From positions 4,534 to 68,533 of the forward strand of contig MTMD02000014.1 in NCBI GenBank assembly GCA_002010065.2: DNA of 64,000 bases, written 5' to 3'. The position numbers were made by a program, and so were the translations under genes. Source of the stretch: Candidatus Pyrohabitans jungbluthii (GTDB taxonomy: Archaea; Hydrothermarchaeota; Hydrothermarchaeia; Hydrothermarchaeales; BMS3B). The notes under the pieces were generated by a model. That model saw only the letters and a program-made list of their open reading frames with translations. It ran no database searches and was not told where the DNA came from. Below are positions 35,685-51,786 of this stretch, in pieces (the first letter of the stretch is position 1; every line of letters starts with the position of its first letter).

Positions 35685-35855
35685 AGCCCATCCTCCTCTA
35701 TTTCTCCCGTAGTATTAACTTGCCGTTATTTTCTATAAAAAATTTTCTGTTTTATTTAAAAATCTCCTCACCCATATATTAAAATTTTAGAAATAGTCCC
35801 AACCGATTTCAGGAAAACCAAAATTTTATTTAATGTGAAATTTAATTACCACTAA

Positions 35856-37859
35856 ATGATGCGGGGAATTTTCCTGTGCACCTGCGGGAGGCAGAACAAA
35901 TTAAATTTTAAAAAACTTAAGAATAGGCTTTCAAACCAGGGAAAAACCGAGATTTACGACTATTTTTGCTCGCCGAAGGGCATGGAGTACATCGCCCACC
36001 TTGCTGAGCGCTGGGGATTGAGCAGTATATACATGGCTGCGTGCAGCGATAAAGCAGAGAGCTTCGAAAAGCTGGGCGAGGAAATAGATGTGCCCATATA
36101 TACCATAAATATCCGCGAAACCTGTGGGTGGGTTCATGACAGAGAGGAGGCCACAGAAAAAGCGGCGCTTCTTGTTAAAAGCGCGATCGCGAGCGTTGAA
36201 GTCCAGCACGACGCCGCCCCTGTGGTGGTTGGTGGTAGAGAAGATGTGATTCTTGCCGGTGACTTTGAGAAGGCAAGAGAATTCGCCAACCTTCTTCCTG
36301 AGGATGTTAAGGTAAGAATGATTGCGAGAAGTGCTTCTCCGGAAGGGGTAGTGCAAGAGTTTCTTGCCGGTGAGATAAAGAGCATTTCTGGCGAATTTGG
36401 TGATTTTAAGGTAGGCTACGAGGTAGCGCCTATAGATTCGCGCACTTGCATAGGGTGCGGTAAATGCGAAGCTTCCTGCCCTGAGGGTGCAATCTCCCTG
36501 CTCACCTACTCCATCTCAGACTCCTGTACCCGCTGCGGCAAGTGCATTAAAGTGTGCCCGGTTGGTGCAATAAGCTTCGAGAACAGGGAGGCAATCGCAG
36601 AGGCGGGGCAGGTGGTAATCTTTGGCAACTGGATGGGCCCAAACAGGCATGGAATATTTCAGGTGAAGGGCGAGGGAGATTATGCGGAGGTGCTCTCCAA
36701 GCTCATCCCCGGGTTTTACAAGAGGGCTAAACCAAGGTACATCGAGGCGCGCCTTGAGCACTGCGCCAGTGGAAAGAGCACAATAGTGGGCTGTCAGTTT
36801 TGTGAAGCTTCCTGCCCGGAGGGTGCGGTGATAAGAGAGGGGGAGAGAATAAGATTTTCTGAAGTCTCGTGCGTCGGCTGCGGCGCCTGTGTAGCTGCAT
36901 GTCCCCTCTCTGTGCCCGAGCTGGTAACTCTCCCACAGGCAGCCATCGATTCCCAGCTAACCCAGCTTCTCAGCAGCGATAAGATGAGAAAGAAGGTCAT
37001 AGCCTTCACTTGCGAAAACCAGTGGGAGAAGCTGCTCGCTATGGGGAAGAAAGGGTTAAGCTACCCTCCTGTGCTTCCGCTACTCGTGCCGTGCATCGGC
37101 GCTTTGTCTATACCCAACCTGCTCTTACCCTTCGCAATGGGCGCTGACGGGGTTATTCTTCTGGGCTGCGGGGAGTGTCGCCACTCTTCCAGCACTCCCG
37201 CCGTGGGGTTCGTAACCAAGCTGCTTGAAGGTTACGGGATGCAAAACGCCCTGCTTGAGATCAGAGGCAGAACCCCTGAGGAAACAGCAGAAGCTATAAA
37301 GAGCTTTTATGGCAACCTCTCACCCTCGCCATTCGCTTCTGCCGGGAAAATTGACGGCAATCAGGTGCAGCGTGTGCTAAAAATACTCAAAGCTTTTTCC
37401 TCCTTTGATTTGCCAGAAATAAGAATACTCGACGAAAGGCTGCCCTTCGGCTATGCTGAAATTGCCCGAGAGAAATGCACCTTCTGCAACGCCTGCATCT
37501 CCATGTGTCCTACTTCTGCTCTTACTAAAGCAGACTCCAAGCTCGAGTTTTCCCATTCGAAGTGCATAAACTGCAGGCTTTGTGAAAGGGCATGTCCTGA
37601 AGGTGCGATAAGGGTGGAGAGTGTATTTGACCTGAGGGAATACGTGGGTGGGGAGAAGAAGATGCTTGTGGAGGAGGAGATGCTCCCCTGCGAGGGCTGC
37701 GGCAGACGCGTAATTCCCAGAGGCATGCTTAGGAAGTCTGCTGAAAAGCTGGTTGATGCCGGCATACCTGGGGATTCTCTTCAGATAAGGCTTCTTGAGT
37801 ACTGCGAGCGCTGCCGGGGGAAGAAGGTGTTAGAGCTTTTGATGGAGGGTAGAATTTGA
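35856..37859 (+). CDS. Cytoplasmic iron-sulfur protein: polyferredoxin with an MvhD/FlpD-like domain
   Basis: There are several CxxCxxCxxxCP clusters (CIGCGKCEASCP, CTRCGKCIKVCP, CQFCEASCP, CVGCGACVAACP, CTFCNACISMCP, CINCRLCERACP). An MvhD-like block is VIAFTCENQW...LVPCIGALS...MGADGVILLGCGECRH. There is no signal peptide. Confidence 0.7.
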   Translation: MMRGIFLCTCGRQNKLNFKKLKNRLSNQGKTEIYDYFCSPKGMEYIAHLAERWGLSSIYMAACSDKAESFEKLGEEIDVPIYTINIRETCGWVHDREEATEKAALLVKSAIASVEVQHDAAPVVVGGREDVILAGDFEKAREFANLLPEDVKVRMIARSASPEGVVQEFLAGEIKSISGEFGDFKVGYEVAPIDSRTCIGCGKCEASCPEGAISLLTYSISDSCTRCGKCIKVCPVGAISFENREAIAEAGQVVIFGNWMGPNRHGIFQVKGEGDYAEVLSKLIPGFYKRAKPRYIEARLEHCASGKSTIVGCQFCEASCPEGAVIREGERIRFSEVSCVGCGACVAACPLSVPELVTLPQAAIDSQLTQLLSSDKMRKKVIAFTCENQWEKLLAMGKKGLSYPPVLPLLVPCIGALSIPNLLLPFAMGADGVILLGCGECRHSSSTPAVGFVTKLLEGYGMQNALLEIRGRTPEETAEAIKSFYGNLSPSPFASAGKIDGNQVQRVLKILKAFSSFDLPEIRILDERLPFGYAEIAREKCTFCNACISMCPTSALTKADSKLEFSHSKCINCRLCERACPEGAIRVESVFDLREYVGGEKKMLVEEEMLPCEGCGRRVIPRGMLRKSAEKLVDAGIPGDSLQIRLLEYCERCRGKKVLELLMEGRI

Positions 37860-38497
37860 GAGAAATCATGGAGTCGAGAAGGGACTTTTACTACTTTCTT
37901 TCGTGGCTATACCTGGAAGGACCTCCTCAGGAGCTTGTGGAAGACCTGATTAATGGAAAGTTTCAGCTTGAGCACAGAAACAAGGATATGCAGGAGGGGA
38001 TTAGGATTTTAGAGGAATGGGCCACGAGCGTGGAGGATGTAAGGGAGGGCTATCTTAACGCTCAAGACGAGTTTGCAAGGCTCTTTATTGGACCAGGGAA
38101 GCCGCTGGTATCGCCGTATCAGTCGGTTTACGAGGAGGGCGCACCCTACGGCAAAGCCACGCTGAGGATGAAGGAGATATACGAAGAAGCTGAGGTGAGC
38201 AAGGGTACTGGGGTAAAAGAGCCTGAGGACCACGTGGGCATGGAGCTGGCGTTTATGGGCCTCCTCTGCAATAGAATTTCCTCGCTTGTGGATAGAAGCG
38301 AGATTCTGAGGAATTTGCACACTCAAAAGCAGTTCCTCAATGAGCAACTGCTTAGATGGGTGCCGAAGTTCTGTGAAGACCTCCTCAAGAGCGAGAGGGC
38401 CTTCTTCTATCGCGGTGTGGCGATGCTCACCCTTGGCTTCCTCGAAGAGGAGAAGCGCAACATAGAACAACTAATCGCGAGCTATGAGCTTGAGTAG
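37856..38497 (+). CDS. TorD/DmsD-family redox-enzyme maturation chaperone
   Basis: RRDFYYFLSWLY, EFARLFIGPGKPLVSPYQSVY and EDHVGMELAFMG are the conserved TorD-family blocks. Confidence 0.75.
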   Translation: MREIMESRRDFYYFLSWLYLEGPPQELVEDLINGKFQLEHRNKDMQEGIRILEEWATSVEDVREGYLNAQDEFARLFIGPGKPLVSPYQSVYEEGAPYGKATLRMKEIYEEAEVSKGTGVKEPEDHVGMELAFMGLLCNRISSLVDRSEILRNLHTQKQFLNEQLLRWVPKFCEDLLKSERAFFYRGVAMLTLGFLEEEKRNIEQLIASYELE

Positions 38498-38498
38498 G

Positions 38499-38912
38499 CT
38501 ATTCCACAAGCTTCCTATCGGTGCGGTAAACCAGCGCACTGCAGCTCGCCACAAGCCTAGCGTCCTGGTTTCTCACCTTTATCTCGTAGAGCCCTGTTTT
38601 GCGCGTGGTGTTTATCTCCCTCGCCTCGGCGCGCAACACATCCCCCTGCTTGGCTGGCGAGGTGTAGGTTACATTCATGCTCAGCGCCACGCTTACTATG
38701 CCCCGAGAGTTGCTCGCCAGCTCGAAGGCGGCGTCGATGAGGGCGAAGATGGCGCCGCCATGAGCGTAGCCGAAGATGTTCTCGTGCTCCTCACTCACCT
38801 TCATCTCCACCAGAGCGTAGCCCTCTTTCAGCTCCAGCAACCTTATTCCCAGCTTCTTTGCAAAGGGCTCCGCCTCGAACCTCTCCTTAAGAATCTCAAT
38901 GACGTTGCTCAA
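38499..38912 (-). CDS. PaaI/YbgC-type hotdog-fold thioesterase
   Basis: FAKKLGIRLLELKEGYALVEM...NIFGYAHGGAIFALIDAAF matches the PaaI family pattern. Confidence 0.8.
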   Translation of the reverse strand: MSNVIEILKERFEAEPFAKKLGIRLLELKEGYALVEMKVSEEHENIFGYAHGGAIFALIDAAFELASNSRGIVSVALSMNVTYTSPAKQGDVLRAEAREINTTRKTGLYEIKVRNQDARLVASCSALVYRTDRKLVE

Positions 38913-39164
38913 GGCTGAACACCTCTTATAAGACTATACCCTCTCTATTTTTATGTTTAAGCCAGAAAAATCCGAATCTTCTCCTGAGAGTAGAGTTGCA
39001 TCCATGCTTCTCCCACATCCTCTCTTAGCAGGGTAACCTGTACCTTACCGGTAATGCTGACAACTGTTCAAAGAATTAAAGAAGTAATAAATATTATCAA
39101 AAGAACTTAAAATTTATTAAGGGATTGCTGACTACTGATGCCCAATATTTGGAGAAGTGGAAAA

Positions 39165-39500
39165 ATGGCGGACAGACTAAAAGCCTACAGACAGAAAGAG
39201 GGGCACGAAAAAATAAGAGAAATTGGACATATCGACCTCTCCGATGCGGTATTAGCCGTAAGACAGTTGAAAATCTCCCCGGCAAATGTGGAAATTCCAG
39301 AGATGGTGGGAGTCCAGAGGGATAGAAGCTTTATTGAGTTCACAAAACTTGCGGATGGTGAGTATCAGGTAAGATACGAAAACCCCGGTGAAAAAGTATA
39401 CCTGATAGGCAGTTTGCCGGAGCAAAAAGCCATTGATTGCCTCACAGATTTCTTCAAAGGCGAGCGGCCAAGGTGGTGTGATGAGCTCGAGGAATATTAA
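39165..39500 (+). CDS. Hypothetical protein
   Basis: This ORF has a GGAG-like site upstream of ATG 39165 and overlaps the next gene by 20 nt. I recognise no motif. Confidence 0.4.
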   Translation: MADRLKAYRQKEGHEKIREIGHIDLSDAVLAVRQLKISPANVEIPEMVGVQRDRSFIEFTKLADGEYQVRYENPGEKVYLIGSLPEQKAIDCLTDFFKGERPRWCDELEEY

Positions 39501-40038
39501 AATAGTGCTGCTTCTCCTGATTTTACTTTCGGTGATTTCAGGCACGCTGCTTTATATTAAGTTTCAGAACCGGAAGTCTGATGCTTTGCTGCCAGAGAAT
39601 GCGACAGTCTCCAATGGCCCATCCTATTTTCCCGAGCTGTACCTTAAGCCGGAACAGGTTAAAATTGAGCCAAATGAGACAGCGGTTGTCAATGTGGTTC
39701 TCGTAAATGGCTCAGCCGTAGCGGCTCTTGATATTGGTATTGAATACGACGGAAATGTGATCGAGGTGCTAAACGTCACCTCAAACTACAGCATTAATTA
39801 TTCCACCGGCTATATACTCGACCACTTTCTTAAGAATGTCCTGGAGCTGGAAATATATCCTGAGAGACCCATCGAAAATGGCAGCATAGTGGCAAGCATC
39901 GCCATACGAGGGGTGCGTGAGGGTAAGAGCGTTCTGAGCTTCTCTATCTTTTCCGAGCTGTACGATGAAAAAGGAAAGCCGATAAACAGGGGGCTTTTCG
40001 ACATCGCGGAGGTTGTGGTGGGAAATGAGCAACTATGA
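39481..40038 (+). CDS. N-terminally anchored protein with a cohesin-like beta-sandwich domain
   Basis: The anchor is IKIVLLLLILLSVISGTLLYI. TAVVNVVLVNGSAVAALDIGIEYDGNVIEVLNVT and GSIVASIAIRGVREGKSVLSFS...DIAEVVVG resemble the strand pattern of type I cohesins. Confidence 0.45.
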   Translation: MSSRNIKIVLLLLILLSVISGTLLYIKFQNRKSDALLPENATVSNGPSYFPELYLKPEQVKIEPNETAVVNVVLVNGSAVAALDIGIEYDGNVIEVLNVTSNYSINYSTGYILDHFLKNVLELEIYPERPIENGSIVASIAIRGVREGKSVLSFSIFSELYDEKGKPINRGLFDIAEVVVGNEQL

Positions 40039-40056
40039 AGCCTCATCCAGTAACTC

Positions 40057-41730
40057 TTAGAGATAATGCCCCTGGACAGTTGACTCGGCGCAAACATATC
40101 TTTCCATCTCCCTCACCTCCCCATTTTTAAGCACCATGTACTTCGCGTATATTAGCCTGTCCTTCCCCAGGCTCTTTCTGTAGAGCCTTTCAACGATGAA
40201 GCCTCCGGCTTCTTCTCTCGCAACGGTGTGGGATATCGGCGGCTCCCTCAGGATTTTGAGCTCTCCTCCCATCTTCTGAGCCTCTTCCCTCATATCCTGC
40301 AGGACCTTCTGAAGCTCTCCCTCATTTACCTCCCGGTGCTCCCTTCCGTACCAGGAATTTGAAGTTTCATGAACCACAAAGCGCACATAGTCTGCCGCCT
40401 CTTCCGGTGTATCTATGGGCGCAAACAGGAAGGATGCCTGCTCCCAGCCTTCCACGGCGAAGCCCACGTTGTTGTATTCGGCGATGAGATAGCTGAGCTC
40501 ATCCGCTCCGATGCGCTGGTAGATGGGTCTGATAAGCCTGAAGCCCTCTCTGAGCTTTAGGCTGGGGTAGCGCCTTTTAACACCCTCTTCCGTTGAAATT
40601 ACCCCGAGACCCTCGGATATTTCAAACTCCTCGTCGAGGATTGGAACCTCCTCGCCGTTGATGATGAGGCGCTCCCTGAGACCGTCGTAGGTGACGTTGT
40701 GGGGTGGGAAGAACGCAGGAGCCCTCGCGTAGAAGCGGGACCAGACCTCAATGTTCACCAGATAGTTGCCCCTGACCTGCACAATGTCAAGAAGCGCCTC
40801 GCACCTGCTTTTAATCAGAGGCTCCAACCCTCTGCTCACTCTGAACAGGTCCTCAAAGGTGTAGAAGTTGCAGTGGTCTAAGGAATTATACGACTTGAAG
40901 TAGTATGCATTTGCCCCCCGGAGGGACATGCTACCCCTGTCCATCCACTCAAGCTCATAGAGGAGGCTGAACAGGGTAGAGGAGTATTTCTTCGGCAGGT
41001 ATCCCTTCGCCAGCCTATTCCCATCTTCACCCGGCCTGAGCTTTCTGATGTAGACCCTCACCGCCTCTGCGACCTCTCCGTCCTCCTCACGCCAGTAGGT
41101 CACAAACCTCTCCCCTCTCTTGCCGCCGAAAAAGCTCTCCAACCCCTCTGTTGAATTTGGCGGCGCCTCAACGACGCCCTCTTCACCCTTTATCCAGCCT
41201 TCCGGCAAGTAAGAGAAGCGTATATCCCCGCCTTCAATGGTCACCCCTCTGGCTACCTCCATAGCCTCGGTTTCCAGTATGTCACCCTTTTTATCCTGAG
41301 AAATGTAGGGATCGAGGTTTACGGTGAGATTCCCGAACACTCCTTTATCTATGGCGATAAAAGGCGGTGAATAGATTATGAGCAGATTCTCCGGATATGT
41401 GAGCGAAATAACCCTTCTGTCACCCTCCTTCATGGGCATGATGTACTCACCTTCATCTTTTTGATTCATAAGAATGAGACTGCGATAGCCGGTATCTGCC
41501 ACAAAATCGCCCCAGTATATGTTCCTAAGCTTTGGTTCTATTTTCTCAACCTCAATTACCACGTCGTAGTATCCTGTGGCAGGGTTCTCCCGCACCTCAA
41601 CAAGTTTGAATGTCACCTCGACAGGAGAGGGCGGCACCGGCGGGGATAAAACAATATACAAGAGCAGGGCAGAAATGACGACCACGAATACGCCAGCTAC
41701 GCCAAGAACTATTTTTAGAGACTTTCTCAT
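40057..41730 (-). CDS. Hypothetical large N-terminally anchored extracytoplasmic protein
   Basis: The anchor is LKIVLGVAGVFVVVISALLLYIVL. The roughly 520-aa ectodomain has no recognisable motif. A GGAGAG site lies about 10 nt upstream of the ATG, 53 nt after the upstream zinc-ribbon gene. Confidence 0.55.
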   Translation of the reverse strand: MRKSLKIVLGVAGVFVVVISALLLYIVLSPPVPPSPVEVTFKLVEVRENPATGYYDVVIEVEKIEPKLRNIYWGDFVADTGYRSLILMNQKDEGEYIMPMKEGDRRVISLTYPENLLIIYSPPFIAIDKGVFGNLTVNLDPYISQDKKGDILETEAMEVARGVTIEGGDIRFSYLPEGWIKGEEGVVEAPPNSTEGLESFFGGKRGERFVTYWREEDGEVAEAVRVYIRKLRPGEDGNRLAKGYLPKKYSSTLFSLLYELEWMDRGSMSLRGANAYYFKSYNSLDHCNFYTFEDLFRVSRGLEPLIKSRCEALLDIVQVRGNYLVNIEVWSRFYARAPAFFPPHNVTYDGLRERLIINGEEVPILDEEFEISEGLGVISTEEGVKRRYPSLKLREGFRLIRPIYQRIGADELSYLIAEYNNVGFAVEGWEQASFLFAPIDTPEEAADYVRFVVHETSNSWYGREHREVNEGELQKVLQDMREEAQKMGGELKILREPPISHTVAREEAGGFIVERLYRKSLGKDRLIYAKYMVLKNGEVREMERYVCAESTVQGHYL

Positions 41731-41783
41731 TATCTTATTCTCTCCTTCGGTTACAGCCTAAAGGAAGCGTAGAATTGGGCAAA

Positions 41784-41819
41784 CTACCATCCTCCGTCAT
41801 CGCCGCCATCGCCCCAGTC
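41784..41819. repeat. Left arm of a perfect 36-bp inverted repeat (codes the last 11 residues + stop of the minus-strand gene)
   Basis: The reverse complement of 41784-41819 is gactggggcgatggcggcgatgacggaggatggtag, identical to 43697-43732. Confidence 0.9.
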
Positions 41820-42452
41820 ACCATCATCGCCATCATCAGAGCCGCCGTAGCCGAAGGAGTCATCAAAGGCGGCGTCATCCGAATTTACATCCTCAAGTAT
41901 TGAGCTGTAGTCCTCCTCCGGAATTGCGACAACCTCTGCAACCTCCGATTGAGAAACACCCTGCGGAAGGTCGTTGAGGTAGGACATAACAAATATTGGT
42001 GCTGCATACCGCATTGCATCGTCCTCATCTTCCCTGATGATTCTCCCTATTTTCTTCCTGTCCTCCTCAACAATTTTTTCTGCTTTGGGTGTCAGCTCAT
42101 AGTACTTTTTCTTTCTAAAAAATCCCTTCTTCTTAACCCTGAGCAGGTCTCTTTTTATCAGCTTGTCGACAGTATTCCTGATGTAGGAGTGGGACTTTCG
42201 GACCATCTTTGCGATTATTTCCGTGTTGCTAATCCCGTGCTTCACCGCCATTAATACAGAAAGCTGTACCGGGGGAAGCGAGCATTTGATTTTCTTTTTC
42301 TTCGTCTTCTTTGTAGATTTTTTAGATTTTGCCTTGACTTTCCTGTTAGCCTTGCTTAAAATTGATTGTCTGTACTTCCTTAAATCTTTGCCACAGTTAG
42401 AACAGAAATTGTGCTTCTCACCCACCTCTGCCCCGCATTCAGGGCAAAACAT
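41784..42452 (-). CDS. Zinc-ribbon + winged-helix protein with an acidic Gly/Asp C-terminal tail (paralogue A)
   Basis: The zinc ribbon is MFCPECGAEVGEKHNFCSNCGKDL, followed by a Lys-rich linker. The wHTH-like block is LPPVQLSVLMAVKHGISNTEIIAKMV...LLRVKKKGFFRKKKYYELTPKAEKI. The tail is GGSDDGDDGDWGDGGDDGGW. The start is set at the internal ATG 42450-42452. Confidence 0.65.
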   Translation of the reverse strand: MFCPECGAEVGEKHNFCSNCGKDLRKYRQSILSKANRKVKAKSKKSTKKTKKKKIKCSLPPVQLSVLMAVKHGISNTEIIAKMVRKSHSYIRNTVDKLIKRDLLRVKKKGFFRKKKYYELTPKAEKIVEEDRKKIGRIIREDEDDAMRYAAPIFVMSYLNDLPQGVSQSEVAEVVAIPEEDYSSILEDVNSDDAAFDDSFGYGGSDDGDDGDWGDGGDDGGW

Positions 42453-42515
42453 ATTATCCCCTCTGGTTATGTTGGTATTTATATTTTTCGCAAACTGTGG
42501 CGGCTGAGGGCGAAT

Positions 42516-42529
42516 CGCATAAATTTGCG
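42516..42529. promoter_or_regulatory. Near-palindrome in the divergent promoter region (candidate operator)
   Basis: cgcataaatttgcg is a 14-bp palindrome with one central mismatch. It lies midway between the two divergent zinc-ribbon/wHTH genes and between TATA-like tracts (ggtatttatattttt and ctatttatatga). Confidence 0.2.
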
Positions 42530-42640
42530 GCAAAAATCGAAGATATTGTGATTTTGCTGTAAAACTGCGCCAGTTGGATATTATTACTTGCACACATAAA
42601 CCACAAACTATTTATATGACTAAAATTTTATAAGGATAAA

Positions 42641-43732
42641 TTGAACATGTTCTGCTCTAATTGCGGAGTAGAAGTGGAGGAAACTGACAAATTTTGTTAT
42701 AATTGCGGGCATAAACTAAAGGTTAGAGGCAGGGTTTCTAAGAGTGCTGGCGGGGAGGTGGAGAAGCAGGTCAGCAAGGCTAAATCTGCTAAATCTCCAG
42801 CTAGGGGTAAAGCTAAAAGTAAAATAAAGCTGAAGTGCTCAATTCAGGGGATGAACAAAAAATTCAAACCCAACGGCTCCTACAGGCTTTACAGTCTCGG
42901 GAGGGTTTCCCTCGAGGAGGCTCTGGAGTATCTGAGAATGATGCCTGAAAAGGAGGACTTTCCGCCAAAACTTCTGAAGAGAATTAAGAATATGGAAGAC
43001 GTGTGTGTGCCCCACTTAATCTTCTCAAACACCTACACCCTCACCTTTTTCACCTCAGACGGAGAGTCAATAGAGGTGATAACAGAAGACTTCACCGAAC
43101 TTGCAGGATTTAAATTTAAAAGTAGCTCTGCCGAGCTAATAGCGGTTGACGTCAGCAGAGAGGAGGCAGAGGAGATATTGAAGGATTTCTTCTGGAGAGT
43201 TGAGAGGATAAAGGAACTGAAGCTGAGGCTCTCCCCGCTTCAGCTGTCGATAATGACAGCCATAGACAATGGTGTAAGCAACTCGCACGCCATGGCTGCG
43301 GTTACTGGTGTGGGGCAGAGTGAGGTGAAGGATGAGATTAAGGAGCTGCTGGATAAGGATTACATTAAGCTCAGGAAGAAGGGCTTTATAAGGAAGAAGT
43401 ACTGGTATGAGCTTACTCCGAAGGGTGAGAGCATACTTGCGAGGGACAGGAGGAAGGTTGAGAAGGCGGTGGCAGATGATGACAAGATGCTGAATAATTT
43501 TGCTGCCCTCTTCTGGATGATGTATGCCCTGCATGTCGTTCCTGATACCATCACCGGAGACCAGATCGTAGATGTCATAGGCGAACCCCCCGGAGAGGTG
43601 GAGGAAGTGGTCGCCGTGCCGGAGGACATGGCATACGACATCGACGTAGATGCAGGTGGAGATGGCGACGATGGAGGCGATTATGGAGACGACGGAGACT
43701 GGGGCGATGGCGGCGATGACGGAGGATGGTAG
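42641..43732 (+). CDS. Zinc-ribbon + inserted domain + winged-helix protein with the same acidic C-terminal tail (paralogue B)
   Basis: It begins MFCSNCGVEVEETDKFCYNCGHKL, followed by a Lys-rich linker and an extra domain of about 125 aa. The wHTH block is LSPLQLSIMTAIDNGVSNSHAMAAVT...IKLRKKGFIRKKYWYELTPKGESI. The tail is GGDGDDGGDYGDDGDWGDGGDDGGW. Confidence 0.65.
   Translation: MNMFCSNCGVEVEETDKFCYNCGHKLKVRGRVSKSAGGEVEKQVSKAKSAKSPARGKAKSKIKLKCSIQGMNKKFKPNGSYRLYSLGRVSLEEALEYLRMMPEKEDFPPKLLKRIKNMEDVCVPHLIFSNTYTLTFFTSDGESIEVITEDFTELAGFKFKSSSAELIAVDVSREEAEEILKDFFWRVERIKELKLRLSPLQLSIMTAIDNGVSNSHAMAAVTGVGQSEVKDEIKELLDKDYIKLRKKGFIRKKYWYELTPKGESILARDRRKVEKAVADDDKMLNNFAALFWMMYALHVVPDTITGDQIVDVIGEPPGEVEEVVAVPEDMAYDIDVDAGGDGDDGGDYGDDGDWGDGGDDGGW
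43697..43732. repeat. Right arm of the perfect 36-bp inverted repeat
   Basis: See 41784-41819. Codons immediately upstream of the repeat differ synonymously between the two genes (gat gat ggt versus gac gac gga). Confidence 0.9.
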
Positions 43733-43742
43733 AGAAGCAGGG

Positions 43743-46490
43743 ATGAAAGACCGGCTTATTTTACTTTTGATTTTCACGGTTTTACCCGCTATTCTCCTGA
43801 GCGGCTGTTTTGGCGGTGGGGAGGAGTTTGTGGAGGAGGTGATACTCGAAAAAACCATAAATCCAGATGAGACCCAGACTGTGGAATTTGACGGCGGGAG
43901 TGTTACAATACCTTTTGGAACAATCGACGAGAATGATACCTTAAGAGTGGCAGTGGTGAAAAAAGCACCAAAACCAGAAGGTGCTGAAATATTAAGAGCC
44001 TACAATATAGATTTGGCCAAGACGGAAAATCTCAACGGATATATTGAGATAAAGCTGAGGCACACCGGGCCAGCCAAAAACATTGTGGCTCTGACCTACG
44101 ACGAATCCTCCAAGAGATGGGTGGGTGTGTTGTACAGAATAGTCGATGATGGCGTTATTATATACACCCCGCACCTGTCCTATTTTGCCACAGCTGTGGT
44201 GACTCACGAGTCAGGACCAATGGCAAAGATAAACTTAGATTACGTATCCGCAGCCGGCGTCTCAATGGATGAGGATAGAGCGTTAGCTGTGCTGCGGGAA
44301 TACGTAAACAACAACTACGAGCCTGGTCCCAATGCCTACAGGGTTGGCTGGGACGCCGCGATGGAGTATTTTGGAATTGGGGGTGCAGCATCAACCTTCG
44401 CCCAGCATGGGCTTGACGTGCAGACGCTTGATAAGTTCAACACATGGGCAACGCACTTAGGGGTTGTGTTTGCAGTAATACAGCTTGGCTGGGATCTGTA
44501 TGATGGAAATGCCGATGAAGGAACTGTTAACTTTCTGAAGAACATGATGTACTCGGCGGTGGGTGAGTTTGGCACCCCAGCAATGCAACTCAGCTTTGTT
44601 GGTGTATTTGCAATAGACTACTCTCTAACAAAGTTCATGGTAACCGCTATAAGCGACAGGGAGAAGATATGGGAGGAAGCCTACAAGCTGTACTATAAGA
44701 AAGATGATAGGGTAAAGCAGAAGAAAAAGATGAAATACTGGTATGATGAATTTTTAAAACTTTACAAGGAGAGCAGAACTCCTGCGGAATTAAAAGCAAA
44801 AATTGATAAAGCTATAAACGACTACGTTTACGATTTCTGGGAGGATGAAACCACAGTTGCTTTCTATCAGGAAGAGGTCATGAAACACGCCTGGACCGGC
44901 GGCGGTGGGCTGAACGAGGAGCTTAAAAAGAAAATCTCAGAAAATCATAAGGCGGAGCTTATGAATGCCCTAAAGCCAGTATTTTGGAGGCTTGAAGAGC
45001 AGATTTTACTTGAAATGCAGGCAAAAGCCACCAGACAATTGAAGAAAATGGCTGAGGAACTGAACAAAGTGTATACCCTGAATGTCAGGGTAAACGGTCC
45101 AAAAGATTTTGTTTCGGGGCTTGAAGTTTATATTCCAGTGAAGGCGGGTAATCAGGAGCAGTGGAGCTGGGAGACGGACGAGAGCGGCGAGTGCTTCATC
45201 AGGTTTACCCTCTACGGACTCCTGAAATCACAGGCAAAGAACAAGGTTGTGCTTATAACAAAGACTGGAGAAAAAATTGAGCAGGAGTTCAAGCTCACTT
45301 CTAGGTCAACGAGCGTTGTTTTTAATATAGAGGGCAAGGGTAGCATTCAGGTCAGCGTAACACCGAAGAGGGTTGCTCCCGGGGACAAGATTAAGGTGAG
45401 CGTTCAGGTAAATCCGCCTGTTGAAACAGAGCTGGAGATTAAGATAGAGAATATTGAGACGGGGTATGGAAAGAAATCAGAGCCGTGGAAGGTTAAGACA
45501 GGCAAGGACGGCAGATACGAGAGCAACTTTGTTATCCAGCCCAAAGATGTTTATAAGAAGGCGGGTAAGAATGTGTTAATTGTCACCGCCCCAGAGCTCG
45601 GAGCTGAAGGCAAAGCAACCTTCGAGATTATCAAGCCGGAGATCAGCGTTACAGTCTCACCCTCAACAGTTAGACCGGGTGAGGCTGTGGTGATAAAGGC
45701 GAGGGTTGAGCCGCCCGGGAGGTATAAAGCCAAGCTTTCCGTTTTGAACGCGCAGAGCGGTGCGAGCTACAGCGACATAAAATACACGGACAGCAGCGGA
45801 AACTTCAGATATCAGCTGAGGATATACGCGAAAAACATCGAGCAAAAGCTGGGAACAAACATCGTCAGCGTTGAGATACCAAAACTCGGGGTTATGGGCA
45901 CCGCAAGCTTTGTTGTTGAGGCAGAGGTGATGCCGACACCGAAGCCAACGCAGACGCCGGCACCCACATCTGAGCCTACAGGGACACCACTTCCAGGAGA
46001 GCCCACAACTACACCACAGGCTGAAAGTCCCTTCAATTTAAATAAGGAATATAAGGCAGGTTTTGTGGTAGATGTAGAACTCCAAGATGGAAAGCGCGAT
46101 TGGTTTAATTTAAATACCTATGGATATGGCAGTAAAGTAACTAACAATATATATCATGTTAAGTATGACTATCGTGGAGACCCAAGGACTATAGGAGAGT
46201 TCAAAGCAACTTTCGACCAAAATTACAGGCTCATGACAATAAATGCTTGGCAAAAGATATTAAATAAAAAAGGAGATGTCGAACTTGAAAAAGGATTAAT
46301 CTGCAACAATCTTGGATTAGATGTTTATGGCAGATCTTGGAATGGGGATAGGGTGAGATATTGGAGTGGAGATGAAAAATTGCTATCTTCTTCCTGTACT
46401 GCGTATCATCGACATTTGGGCACTGAAATGAAAATAAAGCGGGTCGTTGAACTGGATATTAAGTTTAGAATGATTGAAGATGAAAAATGA
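43743..46490 (+). CDS. Large predicted surface lipoprotein with tandem Ig-like repeats, a Pro/Thr linker and a compositionally distinct C-terminal domain
   Basis: The lipobox-like signal is LLLIFTVLPAILLSGC. Two repeats of about 100 aa are SVTPKRVAPGDKIKVSVQVNPP... and TVSPSTVRPGEAVVIKARVEPP... The linker is PTPKPTQTPAPTSEPTGTPLPGEPTTTPQ. The last 150 aa or so are encoded by DNA of about 30-35% GC. The start is set at ATG 43743, 10 nt after the upstream stop. Confidence 0.65.
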   Translation: MKDRLILLLIFTVLPAILLSGCFGGGEEFVEEVILEKTINPDETQTVEFDGGSVTIPFGTIDENDTLRVAVVKKAPKPEGAEILRAYNIDLAKTENLNGYIEIKLRHTGPAKNIVALTYDESSKRWVGVLYRIVDDGVIIYTPHLSYFATAVVTHESGPMAKINLDYVSAAGVSMDEDRALAVLREYVNNNYEPGPNAYRVGWDAAMEYFGIGGAASTFAQHGLDVQTLDKFNTWATHLGVVFAVIQLGWDLYDGNADEGTVNFLKNMMYSAVGEFGTPAMQLSFVGVFAIDYSLTKFMVTAISDREKIWEEAYKLYYKKDDRVKQKKKMKYWYDEFLKLYKESRTPAELKAKIDKAINDYVYDFWEDETTVAFYQEEVMKHAWTGGGGLNEELKKKISENHKAELMNALKPVFWRLEEQILLEMQAKATRQLKKMAEELNKVYTLNVRVNGPKDFVSGLEVYIPVKAGNQEQWSWETDESGECFIRFTLYGLLKSQAKNKVVLITKTGEKIEQEFKLTSRSTSVVFNIEGKGSIQVSVTPKRVAPGDKIKVSVQVNPPVETELEIKIENIETGYGKKSEPWKVKTGKDGRYESNFVIQPKDVYKKAGKNVLIVTAPELGAEGKATFEIIKPEISVTVSPSTVRPGEAVVIKARVEPPGRYKAKLSVLNAQSGASYSDIKYTDSSGNFRYQLRIYAKNIEQKLGTNIVSVEIPKLGVMGTASFVVEAEVMPTPKPTQTPAPTSEPTGTPLPGEPTTTPQAESPFNLNKEYKAGFVVDVELQDGKRDWFNLNTYGYGSKVTNNIYHVKYDYRGDPRTIGEFKATFDQNYRLMTINAWQKILNKKGDVELEKGLICNNLGLDVYGRSWNGDRVRYWSGDEKLLSSSCTAYHRHLGTEMKIKRVVELDIKFRMIEDEK

Positions 46491-46575
46491 ATCCAAGGTT
46501 GCCTTGAGTGACACAATTGATGAAACGCTATCCCGTAGCGTTTGCAATTTATTTACACCTGACAGGTGATAAAAG

Positions 46576-47553
46576 GTGTTTGGTTTGGAGTGGGAGTACG
46601 ACGTGATGTACTGGGTTAATGCGATAACTATTTCATCAGACAGCTCTTTCATCGTTGCCGGTTCTGCTGATGGAGGGATACATTCACTCGCCAGAAACGG
46701 CGAGCTTCTGTGGGATTATGAAGCAGAGGGCAGCATCCGTGCGATGGCTGTGGTGGAAGATGCCTCATGCATCGCCGCGGGCATAGACGGCGGGGAGGTG
46801 CTCCTACTCAGCAGGAGCGGTGAGCTTATCTGGAGCCATGGGCTTGAAAGCAGGGTTAGCTCTGTCTCCGTCCCGTCGGATGGGTCTTTTGTAGCCGCAG
46901 GTGCAGGTGGCTGGCTCTATGTCTTCAGCAGACGCGGAAAACTCCTGTGGAGCAGTAAGGTTGCCCGGAGCGTTGATTCGGTATCTGCATCGGCAAACGG
47001 CTCATGCATAGCTGTGGGAGCCAGAGACCTGAGCAGCGGTAAGGTTTGCCTTTTCGACAGGCATGGAGATGTGCTCTGGGAGCAGAAGACCGGCTGGAGC
47101 TTAGCCGGGAGCGTGAAGGTTGCAGCCTCTCAGAGAGGGACGCTGATTGCCGCGGGCTCGTTGCACGGTGTAAGGATGTTCGACGCGGGTGGTGAGTGTC
47201 TGTGGTACTACGAAACCGGAGGTGGCGTTGAGGATTTAGCCTTCTCTCCGGACGGCAACTACGTGGTTGCCGGCACCCTCGATGGGGCGGTTTATTTATT
47301 TAGCAAAGATGGAATGGTGTGGAGCAGAAAACTTAAAAGCTCAATCCGGGCGGTTGGGATTTCAGAAGCAGGCTGCAGCGTGGCGGCTCTGGACAACGGT
47401 TTCATTTACCTGTTTGATAGGGAGGGTGAGATTCTCTGGGAGAAGGAGACATACGAGGGCATTTGCAGTATAGACATTTCCCGCGACGGCTTGTGCATTG
47501 CCGCTGGCTCTGAGGACGGCGTTGTGTACATGTTTTCAAGGAGAAGAACCTGA
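46576..47553 (+). CDS. PQQ/WD40-like beta-propeller repeat protein
   Basis: About eight repeats of the form (S/A)xDG.....AG(S/T).DG.(V/I)(Y/H)(L/V)(F/L)(S/D)R.G(E/K)LLW are present. It uses a GTG start and has no obvious signal peptide. Confidence 0.7.
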   Translation: MFGLEWEYDVMYWVNAITISSDSSFIVAGSADGGIHSLARNGELLWDYEAEGSIRAMAVVEDASCIAAGIDGGEVLLLSRSGELIWSHGLESRVSSVSVPSDGSFVAAGAGGWLYVFSRRGKLLWSSKVARSVDSVSASANGSCIAVGARDLSSGKVCLFDRHGDVLWEQKTGWSLAGSVKVAASQRGTLIAAGSLHGVRMFDAGGECLWYYETGGGVEDLAFSPDGNYVVAGTLDGAVYLFSKDGMVWSRKLKSSIRAVGISEAGCSVAALDNGFIYLFDREGEILWEKETYEGICSIDISRDGLCIAAGSEDGVVYMFSRRRT

Positions 47554-47602: not shown

Positions 47603-47911
47603 TCAGCGCAGCAGCCACTTCTCACCCCATCTTCGCAGCGCATTCTCAAGCTCACGCAGGTCTTTGCCCTTCTCGGTGAGGGAATACTCCACTCTTATAG
47701 GTGAGTTGTAAACTTTTCTTTTCACAATCCCCTGCTCTTCCAGCTCTTTTAGGCACTTGGAGAGGGTTTTTGAAGAAATCGCCCCGAGGCTACGCTTGAG
47801 TTCATTAAAGCCCTTTGGTCCATCAAAAAGGAAGTGGACTATTGCTAGGTGCCACTTTCTGCCCAGTAGATTTATCGCCTCCACCACCGGGCAAACTTCC
47901 CTCTGCCTCAT
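47603..47911 (-). CDS. HxlR-family winged-helix transcriptional regulator
   Basis: CPVVEAINLLGRKWHLAIVHFLFDGPKGFNELKRSL.AISSKTLSKCLKELEEQGIVKRKVY..PIRVEYSLTEKG is the HxlR signature. Confidence 0.85.
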   Translation of the reverse strand: MRQREVCPVVEAINLLGRKWHLAIVHFLFDGPKGFNELKRSLGAISSKTLSKCLKELEEQGIVKRKVYNSPIRVEYSLTEKGKDLRELENALRRWGEKWLLR

Positions 47912-47996: not shown

Positions 47997-48209
47997 TTGG
48001 AGGTGAAAGATGTGGCAAGGCTGGTGAAGTTGGAAGGAAAGGAGCCGAAGGTAATAACCGAGGAGGAGGCGAAGTTTCCCATAGGTATATGTACCTGCGG
48101 CTTAAGTGCAAACTTCCCATTCTGTGACGGCTCCCACAAGCGCTGCGCAGACGAGGAGGAAGGCTCGCTCTACGTCTACGATGCAAACTCCAGGGTGAGG
48201 GTAAAGTAA
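47997..48209 (+). CDS. CDGSH-type iron-sulfur domain protein
   Basis: The CTCGLSANFPFCDGSHK motif is present. The start codon is uncertain (TTG or GTG candidates at 47997, 48003 and 48012). Confidence 0.8.
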   Translation: MEVKDVARLVKLEGKEPKVITEEEAKFPIGICTCGLSANFPFCDGSHKRCADEEEGSLYVYDANSRVRVK

Positions 48210-48240
48210 CCCTCCCTCTTTCTTTTTCAGTGGAGTAAAA

Positions 48241-49140
48241 ATGCCAAAAATTGAAATCCTGTACTTTACAGACCCCTACTGCACCTGGTGCTGGGGGAGC
48301 GAGCCCATCCTCAGGAAAATAAAGGAGGTATACGGCGAGCAGGTGAAAATCACCTACATCATGGGGGGCTTGGTTGAGGACATGGAAAGCTTTTACGACC
48401 CTCTCAACGACATCTCACGCGCCGAGCAGGTTGCTCCGCATTGGTTGAGTGCTTCAGAAAGGCATGGGATGCCGGTTAGTGGTAAGCTCTGGCTCAGCGA
48501 CCCACCCCGCTCAACCTTTCCCGCGAACATCGCCTACCATGCGGCGAAGCTTCAGAGCGAGGAAAAGGCAGAGAAGTTTCTTCGAAGGATGCGTGAAGCT
48601 GCTGCAGCCGAGGACAAAAACATCTCAAGGTTGGAAGTTCTTGTTGAGCTTGCGGAAGAGGTGGGCTTGGACGCTGAGAGGTTTGTGCGTGACTTCACAG
48701 GAAGAGAAGCTAAGGATGCGTTTCTTAAGGATTTAGCAGTTATGGGCGAAGCCCTTGGTTTAAAGGCGCCTGAAAAATTCACCTCTGAGGCTGAGAAGGC
48801 TTTCTACAGAGACCTGAAGTATGCAAGAAATCTCGGTGTAACTGGCTTCCCCACCTTTCTGGTAAGGAACGAAAAGGGCGAAGGTATATGGGTCACCGGA
48901 TACCACCCCTTCAGCACCTTCGAGATGGTTTTCGAGAAGCTGTCTCCAGGGTTAAAGAAGAGAAAGCCGCAGAGTATTCTTGCATTTATTGAAAAGTACG
49001 GCAGAGTAGCGACGCGGGAAGTGGCAGAGGTTTTCGACCTAACTGACGAAGAGGCTCTTGCAAAACTTGAAGCGCTGGAAAAAGAGGGGAAAATAAGAAA
49101 GCTACGCGCAGGAAACGGCTATTTCTGGGAAATAGTCTAA
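48241..49140 (+). CDS. DsbA-family thioredoxin-fold protein with a C-terminal winged-helix-like extension
   Basis: EILYFTDPYCTWCWGSEP contains the CxxC motif, and GVTGFPTFLV is the cis-Pro loop region. The tail is ATREVAEVFDLTDEEALAKLEALEKEGKIRK. Confidence 0.7.
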   Translation: MPKIEILYFTDPYCTWCWGSEPILRKIKEVYGEQVKITYIMGGLVEDMESFYDPLNDISRAEQVAPHWLSASERHGMPVSGKLWLSDPPRSTFPANIAYHAAKLQSEEKAEKFLRRMREAAAAEDKNISRLEVLVELAEEVGLDAERFVRDFTGREAKDAFLKDLAVMGEALGLKAPEKFTSEAEKAFYRDLKYARNLGVTGFPTFLVRNEKGEGIWVTGYHPFSTFEMVFEKLSPGLKKRKPQSILAFIEKYGRVATREVAEVFDLTDEEALAKLEALEKEGKIRKLRAGNGYFWEIV

Positions 49141-49592
49141 TCCTTTGTCTTCCTCTTGTGATGCCTGTCCTCCCATGCACCGTACTTCGGGTTGGTTATG
49201 GTGTAGTGCTGCGGCGAGTATGGCTTAATGTCCAGCACCGGCGAGCCGTCCATCGCATCTAAGCCCTTAAGATAGAGCTTATTTCCCTCGATTTTTATAA
49301 TCCTGCAGGGGGTTATACCTATGGGGTTCGGTCTGAATGGACCACCGCTGGCAAAGACGCCTATCTCCTCATCGCCATGAGGTGGCTTAACCCGGAGTCC
49401 GCGAAACTCTGCGCGGTGCATGTGGTATATGATAAACACGTGGGAAAAGTGCTCGGCCAGGTTGTAAAGCCCGTCCTTGTACTCCTCGAAGACCTCCACA
49501 ACGCCTTCGCCAGAGTCCTCGAACTCTTCGTGCTGCTCTGGTGACTTAAACTCCGACCTCACTATACCAATGGGCTTGTAGCAGATTTCCAT
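49137..49592 (-). CDS. trmO: TrmO/YaeB (TsaA-like) family protein
   Basis: YKPIGIVRSEF, RPNPIGITPCRIIKIEGNKLYLKGLDAMDGSPVLDIKPY is the UPF0066/TrmO signature. Confidence 0.75.
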   Translation of the reverse strand: MEICYKPIGIVRSEFKSPEQHEEFEDSGEGVVEVFEEYKDGLYNLAEHFSHVFIIYHMHRAEFRGLRVKPPHGDEEIGVFASGGPFRPNPIGITPCRIIKIEGNKLYLKGLDAMDGSPVLDIKPYSPQHYTITNPKYGAWEDRHHKRKTKD

Positions 49593-49610
49593 GCCTTCAC
49601 CTCACCTAAG

Positions 49611-50801
49611 CTACACAAACCACACAAGAATAACCACGCCCAGAAGTACCATAACTATGCCTGAAGCGAGTCTCATACTCCTAGCCTTGGACTCTTCCCA
49701 GTCCTTCAGCCGCTTTGTAACCTTCTCATTGGAAGCCAGGGCGAGGATGACTATGAGGGGCACGACGAACATGAAGTTGTACAGCAGCAGGTAGGCCAAG
49801 CCCTGAAAATATGTGGTCTTCGCCGAGAGCAATGCAAGAATCGCCACGTATATTCCGCCAGAGCATGGGAAGGTGCACAGACCAACGAGAAAGCCCAGGA
49901 CGGCAGCGGAAGGGAAAGTGCCCTTGTACGCCCACCTTCTCAGTGTGGCATGGCTGAAGCTTGGAATGCGGAGGTGGATGGGCAGGATGAAGGGGTTGAT
50001 GTAGTCTTTAATGTTTATCAGCCCCAGGATTATTATAAGATAGGCGCCCAGTTTTGCCATGAAGTGGGGTCTGCCCGTAAATATCAGCGCCTTCATTATA
50101 CCAATGCCTATGAGGAAGTAGGCCAGGTAGATGGCTGAGATGTACACAACGCCCATCTTAAGCACGCCGGCGCGGGTCTTCTTGATAGTGAATAGGAAGG
50201 CGATGAAGAAGAGCAGTACTGCAAATGCGCAGGGGTTTATCCCATCGAGCAGACCTGTAACAATAACCAAGGGAAGTAAGCCGGAGGAGGCGTAGATCCC
50301 CTCAAGGTTGCTGGGCTTCATGTCTTTTAGCTCATTAAAGTAAGTTGAGAGGGGCTCGTCTATTGGATACTCCCGTATCTCTCCGCCAGGCACCCACACG
50401 CGGTAGCTCTTTGCATTCGCCTTCATGGAATCCTGGTATACTACCAGCTTGCCATCCCACTTCAGCGCTTCCCTCACAGCATGCTCCGGCACGTGTCCCT
50501 CGAGAAATATCCTCCCGTCTATGACAGCGGTAAGGTGCCCCTGCAGCCTTGGCGGAATCCCCTCTTTCTCATTGAGGGAGATTAGCTCTTTCCTGTAGTC
50601 TGGGTTATTTATATAGTCCTTGAGCACAATCTTGGTAACACCTTCCTCCTTAAGCAGCGGTATGAGCCTCTCTTTAATGTAAATAGTACAGTCTGTGCAA
50701 GCTTCGTTGTAGTATATCACAGCCTCGCGCTGCTCAGCGGCATAGCTGAGGGGCAGCGATGAAAAGATTAGCAGGAGCAGAAAAATATACCTAAGCCTCA
50801 T
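49611..50801 (-). CDS. Fusion of an extracytoplasmic DUF411(CopG)-like domain with a DsbD/CcdA-type thiol-disulfide transporter membrane domain
   Basis: After a signal peptide come YYNEACTDCTIY and LQGHLTAVIDGRIFLEGHVPEHAVREAL (similar to the ..HT.V.GY.IEGHVP block of DUF411). The membrane domain has GINPCAF and LCTFPCSGG Cys motifs typical of DsbD-family transporters. Confidence 0.6.
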   Translation of the reverse strand: MRLRYIFLLLLIFSSLPLSYAAEQREAVIYYNEACTDCTIYIKERLIPLLKEEGVTKIVLKDYINNPDYRKELISLNEKEGIPPRLQGHLTAVIDGRIFLEGHVPEHAVREALKWDGKLVVYQDSMKANAKSYRVWVPGGEIREYPIDEPLSTYFNELKDMKPSNLEGIYASSGLLPLVIVTGLLDGINPCAFAVLLFFIAFLFTIKKTRAGVLKMGVVYISAIYLAYFLIGIGIMKALIFTGRPHFMAKLGAYLIIILGLINIKDYINPFILPIHLRIPSFSHATLRRWAYKGTFPSAAVLGFLVGLCTFPCSGGIYVAILALLSAKTTYFQGLAYLLLYNFMFVVPLIVILALASNEKVTKRLKDWEESKARSMRLASGIVMVLLGVVILVWFV

Positions 50802-51775: not shown

Positions 51776-51786
51776 ATCTTCACCTC

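Follow-up and report, generated by a model that had tools for sequence, protein, structure and literature searches.

A conserved archaeal gene cluster with a predicted MarR-like regulator and a strain-variable, predicted envelope lipoprotein

In the genome of Candidatus Pyrohabitans jungbluthii (Hydrothermarchaeota), seven adjacent genes without an assignable function lie between a thioesterase gene and the gene of an HxlR regulator, and the question they raise is whether they form a working unit and, if so, of what kind. The genes, here called g1, g2, g3, regA, regB, g6 and g7, occupy positions 39138-47553 of a 64,000-nucleotide stretch of contig MTMD02000014.1 (GenBank assembly GCA_002010065.2), the whole of which is referred to as the window. 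An earlier inspection of these letters, made without database searches (the sequence-only reading), had proposed a self-contained, lineage-specific module that produces and controls variable surface structures. When co-localisation was examined, the homologues were found clustered in Ferroglobus placidus and in uncultured relatives, not scattered. We therefore consider, with roughly even confidence, that the block is one conserved cluster of Ferroglobus/Geoglobus-like archaea, of the type represented by Ferp_0035-0041 of F. placidus, in which a regulator governs surface proteins.

The gene content of the block is established by the open reading frame (ORF) list of the window, which contains seven ORFs with the sizes, order and strands first described. 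The patchy composition that had been noticed was confirmed as well, GC ranging from 0.32 to 0.60 across the block (0.38 in the spacer between regA and regB, 0.59 in g7 and 0.32-0.38 at the 3' end of g6). A hydropathy scan found an N-terminal hydrophobic segment in g2, g3 and g6, and no membrane or signal segment in g1, regA, regB or g7. Scans of the seven proteins against Pfam, NCBIfam, PHROGs and PADLOC returned no family at all for g1, g3 and g6.

Conservation of the cluster in other archaea

The arrangement of the window is the same in the public contigs that carry an identical regB (L007-L010), and regA was found in L007, L009, L010 and L020. Two further strains, L004 and L020, are syntenic with the window, and the flanks are identical in three strains. 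In L004/L005, at about 79% amino acid identity, the order thioesterase, g1, g2, g3, regB, g6, g7 is kept and regA is absent.

More distant loci proved more informative. One contig (L012) that carries a g6 homologue (P0010) encodes proteins exactly matching Ferp_0035-0041 of F. placidus DSM 10642, where every family of the block is found adjacent and co-directional, with ribosomal-protein genes as neighbours and not thioesterase/HxlR. The order there is regB-g6-g1-g2-propeller-g2'-g3', and identities to the window proteins are 47% for regB, 43% for g6 over its full length, 61% for g1, 30% for g2, 27-31% for the PQQ-type propeller and 31% for the C-terminal domain of g3. All of these F. placidus proteins have been deposited as hypothetical proteins. 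The L016/L022 lineage has the order regB-g6-214aa-g3'-g1, followed by g2 paralogues, and no propeller was seen in the 8.2-kb L022 contig, while L021 and L023 contain parts of the set. In L024 and L017, regB is directly followed by another large lipobox protein that is not of the g6 family. A lipobox protein comes next after regB in all lineages seen except Geoglobus sp. UBA235, whichever family that protein belongs to. The nearest named relatives for the block genes are F. placidus and Geoglobus sp. UBA235.

Since the families remain linked at 27-61% identity although order, orientation and flanking genes differ (window, F. placidus, L022 lineage), the cluster is, judged by gene arrangement, a functional unit and not inherited synteny. 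The mirror-symmetric layout around the regulator pair, which the sequence-only reading had noted, holds for the window and L020, though not as a conserved property: because regA is a local duplicate without a counterpart in the 79% relative or in any distant lineage, the layout is species-specific, a local accident of the duplication of regB. The label "lineage-specific" likewise stands for regB, g1 and g3, but fails for the core of g6, which also occurs in Bacillota.

At the left edge of the block, a PIN toxin-antitoxin pair sits between the thioesterase gene and g1 in L004 (163-812) and L005 (1-641); it consists of a PIN-domain toxin gene and an upstream gene for 88 amino acids, and the window and L020 are without it.

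The predicted regulators and their divergent promoter region

The two divergent genes in the middle of the block had been described as zinc-ribbon/winged helix-turn-helix (wHTH) paralogues, which is right and can be refined, from predicted structure, to a MarR-like fold, with scores for curated MarR sequence models that remain below threshold. regB consists of an N-terminal zinc ribbon, a Lys-rich linker, a middle domain of about 115 amino acids, a MarR-like domain (residues 171-294) and a disordered acidic tail that finishes ...GDDGDWGDGGDDGGW. Characteristic of the family are the winged-helix motif KKGFxRKKYWYELTPKG, two further helices behind it, and an acidic Gly/Asp tail with one Trp about ten residues before the end and another at the C-terminus. 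The shorter paralogue regA possesses the zinc ribbon, the Lys-rich linker, the MarR-like wHTH and the acidic Trp tail, and is without the middle domain of regB. Both proteins match the Pfam model Zn_Ribbon_1 (regA 31.9 bits, regB 33.7 bits).

The fold class of regB was established from an AlphaFold2 (AF2) model built on a five-sequence alignment, which is confident for residues 171-294 only (predicted local distance difference test, pLDDT, 70-95). Helices are predicted at 171-190, 197-207, 213-220 and 224-236, a wing at 240-256, and two further helices at 258-277 and 279-294, which gives this segment the predicted alpha1-alpha6 plus wing topology of MarR proteins. The best 40 matches of regB in a Foldseek search against the PDB were all MarR-family proteins (TMt 0.44-0.60, E 1.6e-3 to 1.5e-2), including MexR, HcaR, AdcR/ZitR, BldR and ST1710 at TMt 0.5-0.6. 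Helix 279-294, which is moderately hydrophobic, is the counterpart of the dimerisation helix of MarR proteins and not a membrane anchor. The wing is basic, and the F. placidus orthologue bears the RefSeq name of a MarR-family regulator. The middle domain was modelled with pLDDT below 50 and received no fold assignment.

As a sequence family, regB is rare. A word-indexed search of 5.8 billion proteins yielded five clusters, and an exhaustive hidden Markov model search of 1.84 billion representatives yielded five members at E<1e-30, the remainder matching the zinc ribbon only. The sequence-only reading had asked whether the proteins belong to well-characterised families: the regulators do fall in the MarR fold class, but their sequence family is new. 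Matches in PADLOC were weak and confined to the wHTH (Csa3, CasR and MkoB; E 1e-4 to 5e-6), with none for g1, g2, g3 and g6, and no known anti-phage defence system was matched there beyond generic domains.

Between regA and regB the tail is 73% identical in amino acids and 77% in nucleotides, and the wHTH 37% and 53%. Because the tail is the best conserved part of the two paralogues, it is either under constraint or homogenised by gene conversion.

The 191-bp spacer between the two genes contains TATA-like elements about 25-30 nt from both ATGs and two TTTGC-N-GYAAA palindromes (42524-42534 and 42553-42563), which are the sole matches to this pattern within the window and may be regarded as candidate operators. 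Given the 10-nt gap between regB and g6, the 53-nt gap between g3 and regA, and the 20-nt overlap of g1 and g2, three transcription units are likely here, namely g1-g2, regA-g3 and regB-g6-g7. In the gap between the regA stop and g3, a GGAG precedes the ATG and a TATA-like element is lacking, and g3 is probably co-transcribed with regA.

Some further members of the regulator family were seen. In L022 (397-1595), regB stops early (...ISYDEW, 327 amino acids) and the acidic tail apparently lies in another frame, the result of either a frameshift or an assembly error; the regB copies of L024 and P0035, which are close to that of L022, are intact. One member (P0036, MDF2954220.1) has been deposited under a metagenome-assembled genome (MAG) of the bacterium "Candidatus Thermodesulfobacterium syntrophicum", with contigs of up to 576 kb, which reflects either cross-domain transfer or a binning error. 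Two short stand-alone winged-helix proteins (P0096 and P0137) share the KKGF...YELT wing motif, followed by a strongly hydrophobic helix and an acidic tail with a hydrophobic last residue (...DVDFDMEV and ...DVDFDVEF), and they may represent a wider class of acidic-tailed wHTH proteins.

Envelope and partner proteins, and variation between strains

The protein encoded directly downstream of regB, g6, begins with a signal peptide and lipobox (MKDRLILLLIFTVLPAILLSGC, Cys22) that agree with the pattern [LVI][ASTVI][GAS]C, and its orthologues carry FLSGC (F. placidus), LLSGC (L004) and LVTCC (L022) at this place. Judged by its lipobox, g6 is a lipoprotein, with predicted lipidation of Cys22. In the public annotation g6 begins at an earlier ATG (43650), which adds a Met-rich extension of 31 residues (MQVEMATMEAIMETTE..., window 43650-43742). 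This extension is the other reading frame of the Gly/Asp tail of regB, and the same artefact precedes the lipoprotein genes of L012, L017, L022 and L024.

The AF2 model of g6 (pLDDT 77) is a chain of domains (Table 1), and the most conserved motif of the protein (K266 ... VGVFAIDYS294) lies in the sole poorly modelled part of its core. Residues ~25-560 are shared by 27 homologues (E 1e-19 to 1e-224), and Ferp_0036 and P0011 are full-length orthologues. In an alignment of 26 sequences, the invariant residues are K266, G287, V288, I291, D292, Y293, S294, F365 and W474. No Pfam model covers the core. A Foldseek search of g6 against the PDB and BFVD returned generic tandem beta-sandwich arrays only, at TM-scores of 0.1-0.2 (macroglobulin-like (MG) domains of complement and alpha-2-macroglobulin, and phage proteins with Big-1, FN3 or BACON domains), and gave no fold assignment for the helical core. 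Sequence searches of the PDB, with the single proteins g6 and g3 and with family profiles of g3, g1 and g2, found no matches. The large lipoprotein of L024 was compared with g6 as a possible remote relative, and hhalign gave a probability of 5.6%.

The window was compared with L020, a near-identical, colinear strain (96.5% DNA identity over 20 kb, blastn). The regB and HxlR proteins are 100% identical in the two strains, and regA, regB and the N-terminal half of g6 are ~100% identical. DNA identity is 99-100% at 42000-44400 and 75% at 45300-45600, and the 730 bp at 45967-46696 have no homologous counterpart in L020, which has 393 bp instead. This segment (GC 0.32-0.40) runs from the end of the Pro/Thr linker through the C-terminal domain of g6 and the g6-g7 spacer into g7, of which it covers the first ~40 codons. 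A codon comparison of the two strains traced the same gradient along g6: dS (synonymous divergence) was 0 at residues 1-165, with dN/dS (the nonsynonymous to synonymous ratio) not defined, 0.04 at 166-440 (dN/dS 0.14), 0.27 at 441-530 (0.30), 0.89 at 531-630 (0.19) and 0.27 at 631-726 (0.12), and past the linker the proteins are non-homologous. Mosaic variation of g6 is thereby established.

In L020 and L004, the Pro/Thr linker of g6 is longer and is followed by a short tail with which the protein ends, and the first blade of g7 is different, while the C-terminal domain of the window g6 is homologous to F. placidus and L016/L022 proteins (34-40% identity). Because this domain is absent in the nearest strains and homologous in F. 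placidus and L022, the low-GC segment is most simply read as a recombination import from a more distant relative. The divergence of the membrane-distal half of g6 thus points to recombination and not to proven positive selection. The C-terminal domain of foreign composition that the sequence-only reading had singled out is indeed low in GC and replaced outright in L020, and the mosaic divergence of the distal half, together with the replaced segment, speaks for the idea of a variable surface structure.

Homologues of g6 reach into Bacillota. These proteins (e.g. MDW7740286.1, a "DUF4339 domain-containing protein" from a MAG) share the extracytoplasmic core of about 500 amino acids at 25-36% identity. 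Common to the family are an N-terminal beta-sandwich with HLSxFA, a helical domain with VGVFAIDYS and GFTGGGGLNE, and a second beta-sandwich. The bacterial members differ in bearing either cytoplasmic zinc ribbons or GYF_2 plus a transmembrane helix, or a lipobox of their own; their C-terminal regions are unrelated, and none of the archaeal partner genes lies nearby. In two unrelated Bacillota contigs (L025 7001-11636 and L026 7001-10023), an Lgt-like gene (PF01790) directly follows the g6-family gene. The Lgt-like proteins score 68 and 50 bits, below the Lgt equivalog cut-off of 118.9, and so represent a divergent paralogue and not the housekeeping Lgt. A GYF_2 plus beta-propeller protein follows the Lgt-like gene in L025; this propeller was compared with g7 and shows no similarity to it, nor do the divergent genes of ~520 amino acids upstream of bacterial g6 homologues resemble g3. 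The bacterial contig L027 (3535-8625) carries tandem g6-family paralogues of 850 and 835 amino acids, both with N-terminal double zinc ribbons, adjoining an Xre/RES toxin-antitoxin pair.

The best conserved member of the cluster is g1, which is always followed by g2, overlaps the g2 start in the window, and is 61-79% identical in L004, Ferp_0037, L016 and L021-24. It has an alternative start at 39165 and no match in Pfam, NCBIfam, PHROGs, PADLOC or the PDB. The possibility that g1 is a free-standing version of the regB middle domain was rejected, since BLASTP found no similarity and hhalign only a 19-residue ...AIDxLxDFF... motif at 16% probability.

g2 is predicted to have a transmembrane segment at residues 8-26 and one beta-rich ectodomain. 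It had been called cohesin-like, which turned out to be the weakest part of the description: g2 scores 21 bits against Pfam Cohesin (PF00963; gathering score 24.1, E=4e-4, 48 residues), the L004 orthologue 14 bits, the F. placidus and L022 members have no match, and a seven-member family profile found no cohesin chain in the PDB at E<=10 (hmmsearch). No dockerin model matched at E<=0.1 in the seven block proteins, to which that search applied. Homologues of g2 include Ferp_0038, named "Cohesin domain-containing" in UniProt, Ferp_0040, and two- or three-copy versions in L022, some with C-terminal transmembrane helices.

For g3, with a predicted transmembrane segment at residues 7-25, the search of 5.8 billion proteins gave two homologue clusters only. 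Its C-terminal domain of ~210 amino acids (residues 338-548) is 31-35% identical to lipobox proteins of F. placidus (Ferp_0041) and L016/L022.

The name "beta-propeller protein" suits g7, which scores above the Pfam cut-offs for PQQ_2 (63.4 bits, cut-off 27.6), WD40 (68.4, 27) and DUF5711 (62.1, 26.3). It is probably cytoplasmic, because a signal peptide and a transmembrane helix are both lacking, and its counterpart in F. placidus is Ferp_0039 (27-31% identical). An identity as BamB was rejected, the TIGR03300 score being 66.8 bits against a cut-off of 285.2, with no signal peptide; moreover, to our knowledge archaea have no outer membrane. The predicted topology of the block proteins thus places g2, g3 and g6 on one side of the membrane and g1, regA, regB and g7 on the other.

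Outside the block, a group of redox and disulfide-handling genes lies to the right of the HxlR gene in the window, encoding a CDGSH zinc-finger protein, a DsbA-like protein with a C-terminal wHTH-like match, TrmO, a membrane protein of 396 amino acids, two DUF1573 proteins, DsbD and a SoxA/TsdA-type cytochrome c. The genes to the left of the thioesterase gene encode a molybdopterin oxidoreductase (~925 amino acids), a polyferredoxin/FlpD-like protein of 667 amino acids and a TorD-type (Nitrate_red_del) chaperone, and look like an uncharacterised respiratory module.

Table 1 Features of the block and its surroundings (window positions, or residues of g6 where stated)
Feature	Position	Strand	Description
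Genes left of thioesterase	32895-38497		molybdopterin oxidoreductase group
PaaI/4HBT thioesterase	38499-38912	-	left flank
g1	39138-39500	+	120 aa, cytoplasmic; no hydrophobic segment
g2	39481-40038	+	185 aa, N-terminal membrane anchor
g3	40057-41730	-	557 aa, N-terminally anchored ectoprotein
regA	41784-42455	-	223 aa, short paralogue of regB
regA/regB spacer	42456-42646		divergent AT-rich promoter region, 191 bp
regB	42647-43732	+	361 aa, zinc ribbon and MarR-like domain
g6	43743-46490	+	915 aa, lipobox LLSGC; length counted from the Met preceding the signal peptide
g6 domain	residues 30-153		beta-sandwich; pLDDT >90 over most of the domain
g6 domain	residues 177-440		helical domain, bears invariant VGVFAIDYS
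g6 domain	residues 443-530		beta-sandwich
g6 domain	residues 534-725		two immunoglobulin (Ig)/MG-like repeats
g6 linker	residues 728-759		Pro/Thr linker
g6 domain	residues 770-910		C-terminal beta domain
Strain-variable low-GC segment	45967-46696	+	spans g6 3' end to g7 5' end
g7	46576-47553	+	325 aa, beta-propeller; no signal peptide
HxlR regulator	47603-47911	-	right flank
Genes right of HxlR	47997-52488		redox/disulfide-handling group

A model for the cluster and its place among known systems

In the explanation that we favour, the core of the cluster would be a pair, a cytoplasmic DNA-binding regB directly upstream of the envelope protein g6, the two probably co-transcribed, and the middle domain of regB would be sensor-like. 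Travelling with this pair as partners would be the anchored ectoproteins g2 and g3, the cytoplasmic g1 and the propeller g7. A duplication of regB would have placed a shorter copy, regA, between g3 and the divergent promoter that they share, giving rise to the mirror layout and the three likely transcription units. Dimers of regA/regB may bind the AT-rich divergent promoter and thereby set the level of the envelope proteins, with the regB middle domain and/or tail modulating promoter binding. We infer this DNA binding and its regulatory targets, and control of the surface genes by regA/regB is plausible. The proteins g6, g2 and g3 would lie on the outer side of the membrane and might assemble into one structure, the distal half of g6 being exchanged between strains by recombination. 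Such exchange is what one would expect where a surface structure encounters a partner that changes, be it viruses, other cells or a substrate, and would suit a role in adhesion or recognition.

A number of observations weigh against this explanation. The regB homologue of Geoglobus sp. UBA235, the only locus among the matches listed in a scan of a genome collection, is the one regB seen solitary among housekeeping genes, and the cluster is known from few lineages, so that its conservation rests on few independent observations. The Pfam MarR models remained below their gathering scores for regA (HTH_27 15.2 bits, cut-off 22.2; MarR_2 14.1, cut-off 27), as did a DUF4364 match, and for regB no MarR model was listed in Pfam, the best wHTH matches having E 0.014-0.08; the NCBIfam model AdcR_fam reached 24 bits against a cut-off of 175. 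The regB model has a mean pLDDT of 57 and its Foldseek E values are only about 1e-3, and the predicted recognition helix is rich in Asp/Glu. The count of the palindrome in the window is not above chance, and one copy is kept in L004 with none found in more distant lineages. Finally, dN/dS values of 0.1-0.3 in the variable part of g6 argue for recombination, with no demonstrable positive selection.

The alternative that survives best, though we consider it unlikely, is that regB-type proteins are not transcription factors but cytoplasmic partners of the downstream lipoprotein, serving its targeting, tethering or quality control, in which case the MarR-like domain would bind proteins and the acidic Trp tail would act as a docking peptide, with g7 or g1 as its possible target. 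This would account for a regB gene that is immediately upstream of, or overlaps, that of a large lipobox protein of any family, for the acidic recognition helix and for a tail that is the most conserved part between the paralogues, and it agrees with the zinc ribbons fused via a transmembrane helix to several bacterial g6-family members and with the cytoplasmic propeller and small cytoplasmic protein in the cluster. However, regB agrees with DNA-binding MarR proteins in fold, topology and its basic wing, an exported g6 leaves no cytoplasmic part to bind, and zinc ribbons of the PF13240 type occur promiscuously as N-terminal modules. No lipoprotein gene neighbours the Geoglobus copy, and the divergent promoter architecture suits autoregulation.

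We find it distinctly improbable that the seven genes are neighbouring orphans without a common function, whose apparent module reflects only the shared ancestry of close relatives. In favour of this view, most of the families are tiny, synteny is uninformative among relatives as close as L004, L019 and L020, Geoglobus has regB alone, and no other family of the cluster lies close to the bacterial g6 homologues. What decides against it is the linkage of the families in the window, F. placidus and L022 at 27-61% identity, despite changed order, orientation and flanking genes.

Less probable again, and very unlikely in our judgement, is a previously unrecognised archaeal system that couples the state of envelope lipoproteins to gene expression, with the regB tail docking on g7 or g1 and the g6 family, which in Bacillota has a dedicated, divergent Lgt-like enzyme beside it, taking part in lipoprotein anchoring or envelope assembly. 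If true, it would bear on how archaea make and monitor lipoproteins, which is an open question.

The sequence-only reading had also allowed for a polymorphic effector; in that case g6 would be an effector or toxin whose C-terminal domain can be exchanged, with g7 or g1 conferring immunity. A Pro/Thr linker ahead of a C-terminal domain that some strains have and others lack or have replaced, within a low-GC tract that enters g7, is what such a system might look like. Yet no toxin, peptidase or nuclease family was found at any threshold (profile library scans, PDB sequence search), the same C-terminal domain is kept at 34-40% identity in distant lineages, and the nearest strains simply lack it, bearing a short tail and not an alternative domain. 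Moreover, g7 changes in its first ~40 codons only, no immunity gene varies with the domain, and g6 is predicted to be lipid-anchored, not released; we therefore place this explanation below the preceding one, as one that can hardly be expected to hold. Least probable of all is a mobile element or provirus remnant, for which the GC range of 0.32-0.60, the small zinc-ribbon/wHTH proteins typical of archaeal viruses, the PIN insert at the left edge in L004/L005 and the differing genome contexts of the cluster by lineage could be cited, but which conflicts with the lack of an integrase, transposase, tRNA target, att sites, terminal or flanking repeats or viral hallmark genes in the block or flanks, of relatives in 2.9 million viral contigs or in plasmids, and of PHROGs matches other than to zinc ribbon and propeller, and with the identical flanks in three strains. 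There is no sign of a toxin, defence system or mobile element in the block.

Returning to the favoured explanation of a conserved regulator-surface protein cluster, its parts are of known kinds in the MarR-like regulator, the Ig-repeat lipoprotein and the beta-propeller. New are the way the regulator is built, the families of g1 and g3, the unnamed family to which g6 belongs, and the linkage of all these. Although these findings settle no long-standing question yet, they show that seven genes annotated as hypothetical belong to a conserved cluster, whose orthologue in a cultured vent archaeon, F. placidus DSM 10642, allows expression and biochemistry to be tested. regB represents a distinct MarR-fold architecture of zinc ribbon, middle domain and acidic Trp tail, with a handful of relatives among 1.84 billion representatives, and the g6 family a widespread group of envelope proteins that no Pfam model describes and that is paired twice with an Lgt-like gene in Bacillota. 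Within the single gene g6, the comparison of strains switches sharply from identical through strongly diverged to non-homologous sequence, which clearly illustrates how recombination acts on a surface protein exposed by archaea of hydrothermal-vent populations.

Besides the bacterial g6 family, three known systems invite comparison. Proteins with cohesin and dockerin domains occur in Archaeoglobus fulgidus and in cellulosome-type scaffolds; g2 is by prediction membrane-anchored and extracytoplasmic, with a weak N-terminal Cohesin match, and no dockerin accompanies it in the block proteins. With MarR regulators (MexR, AdcR/ZitR, archaeal BldR, ST1710), regB shares the predicted alpha1-alpha6 plus beta-wing topology of residues 171-294 and the position of its gene beside presumed targets at a divergent promoter. 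Unlike them, it has a zinc ribbon, a Lys-rich linker, a middle domain of 115 amino acids without known relatives, an acidic Trp tail and an acidic recognition helix, and it stays sub-threshold for the Pfam models MarR, MarR_2 and HTH_27. The third is Ferp_0035-0041 of F. placidus, a cluster that is orthologous, yet co-directional, without regA and set beside ribosomal-protein genes, and in which the g2 paralogues have C-terminal transmembrane helices and g3' is shorter and carries a lipobox.

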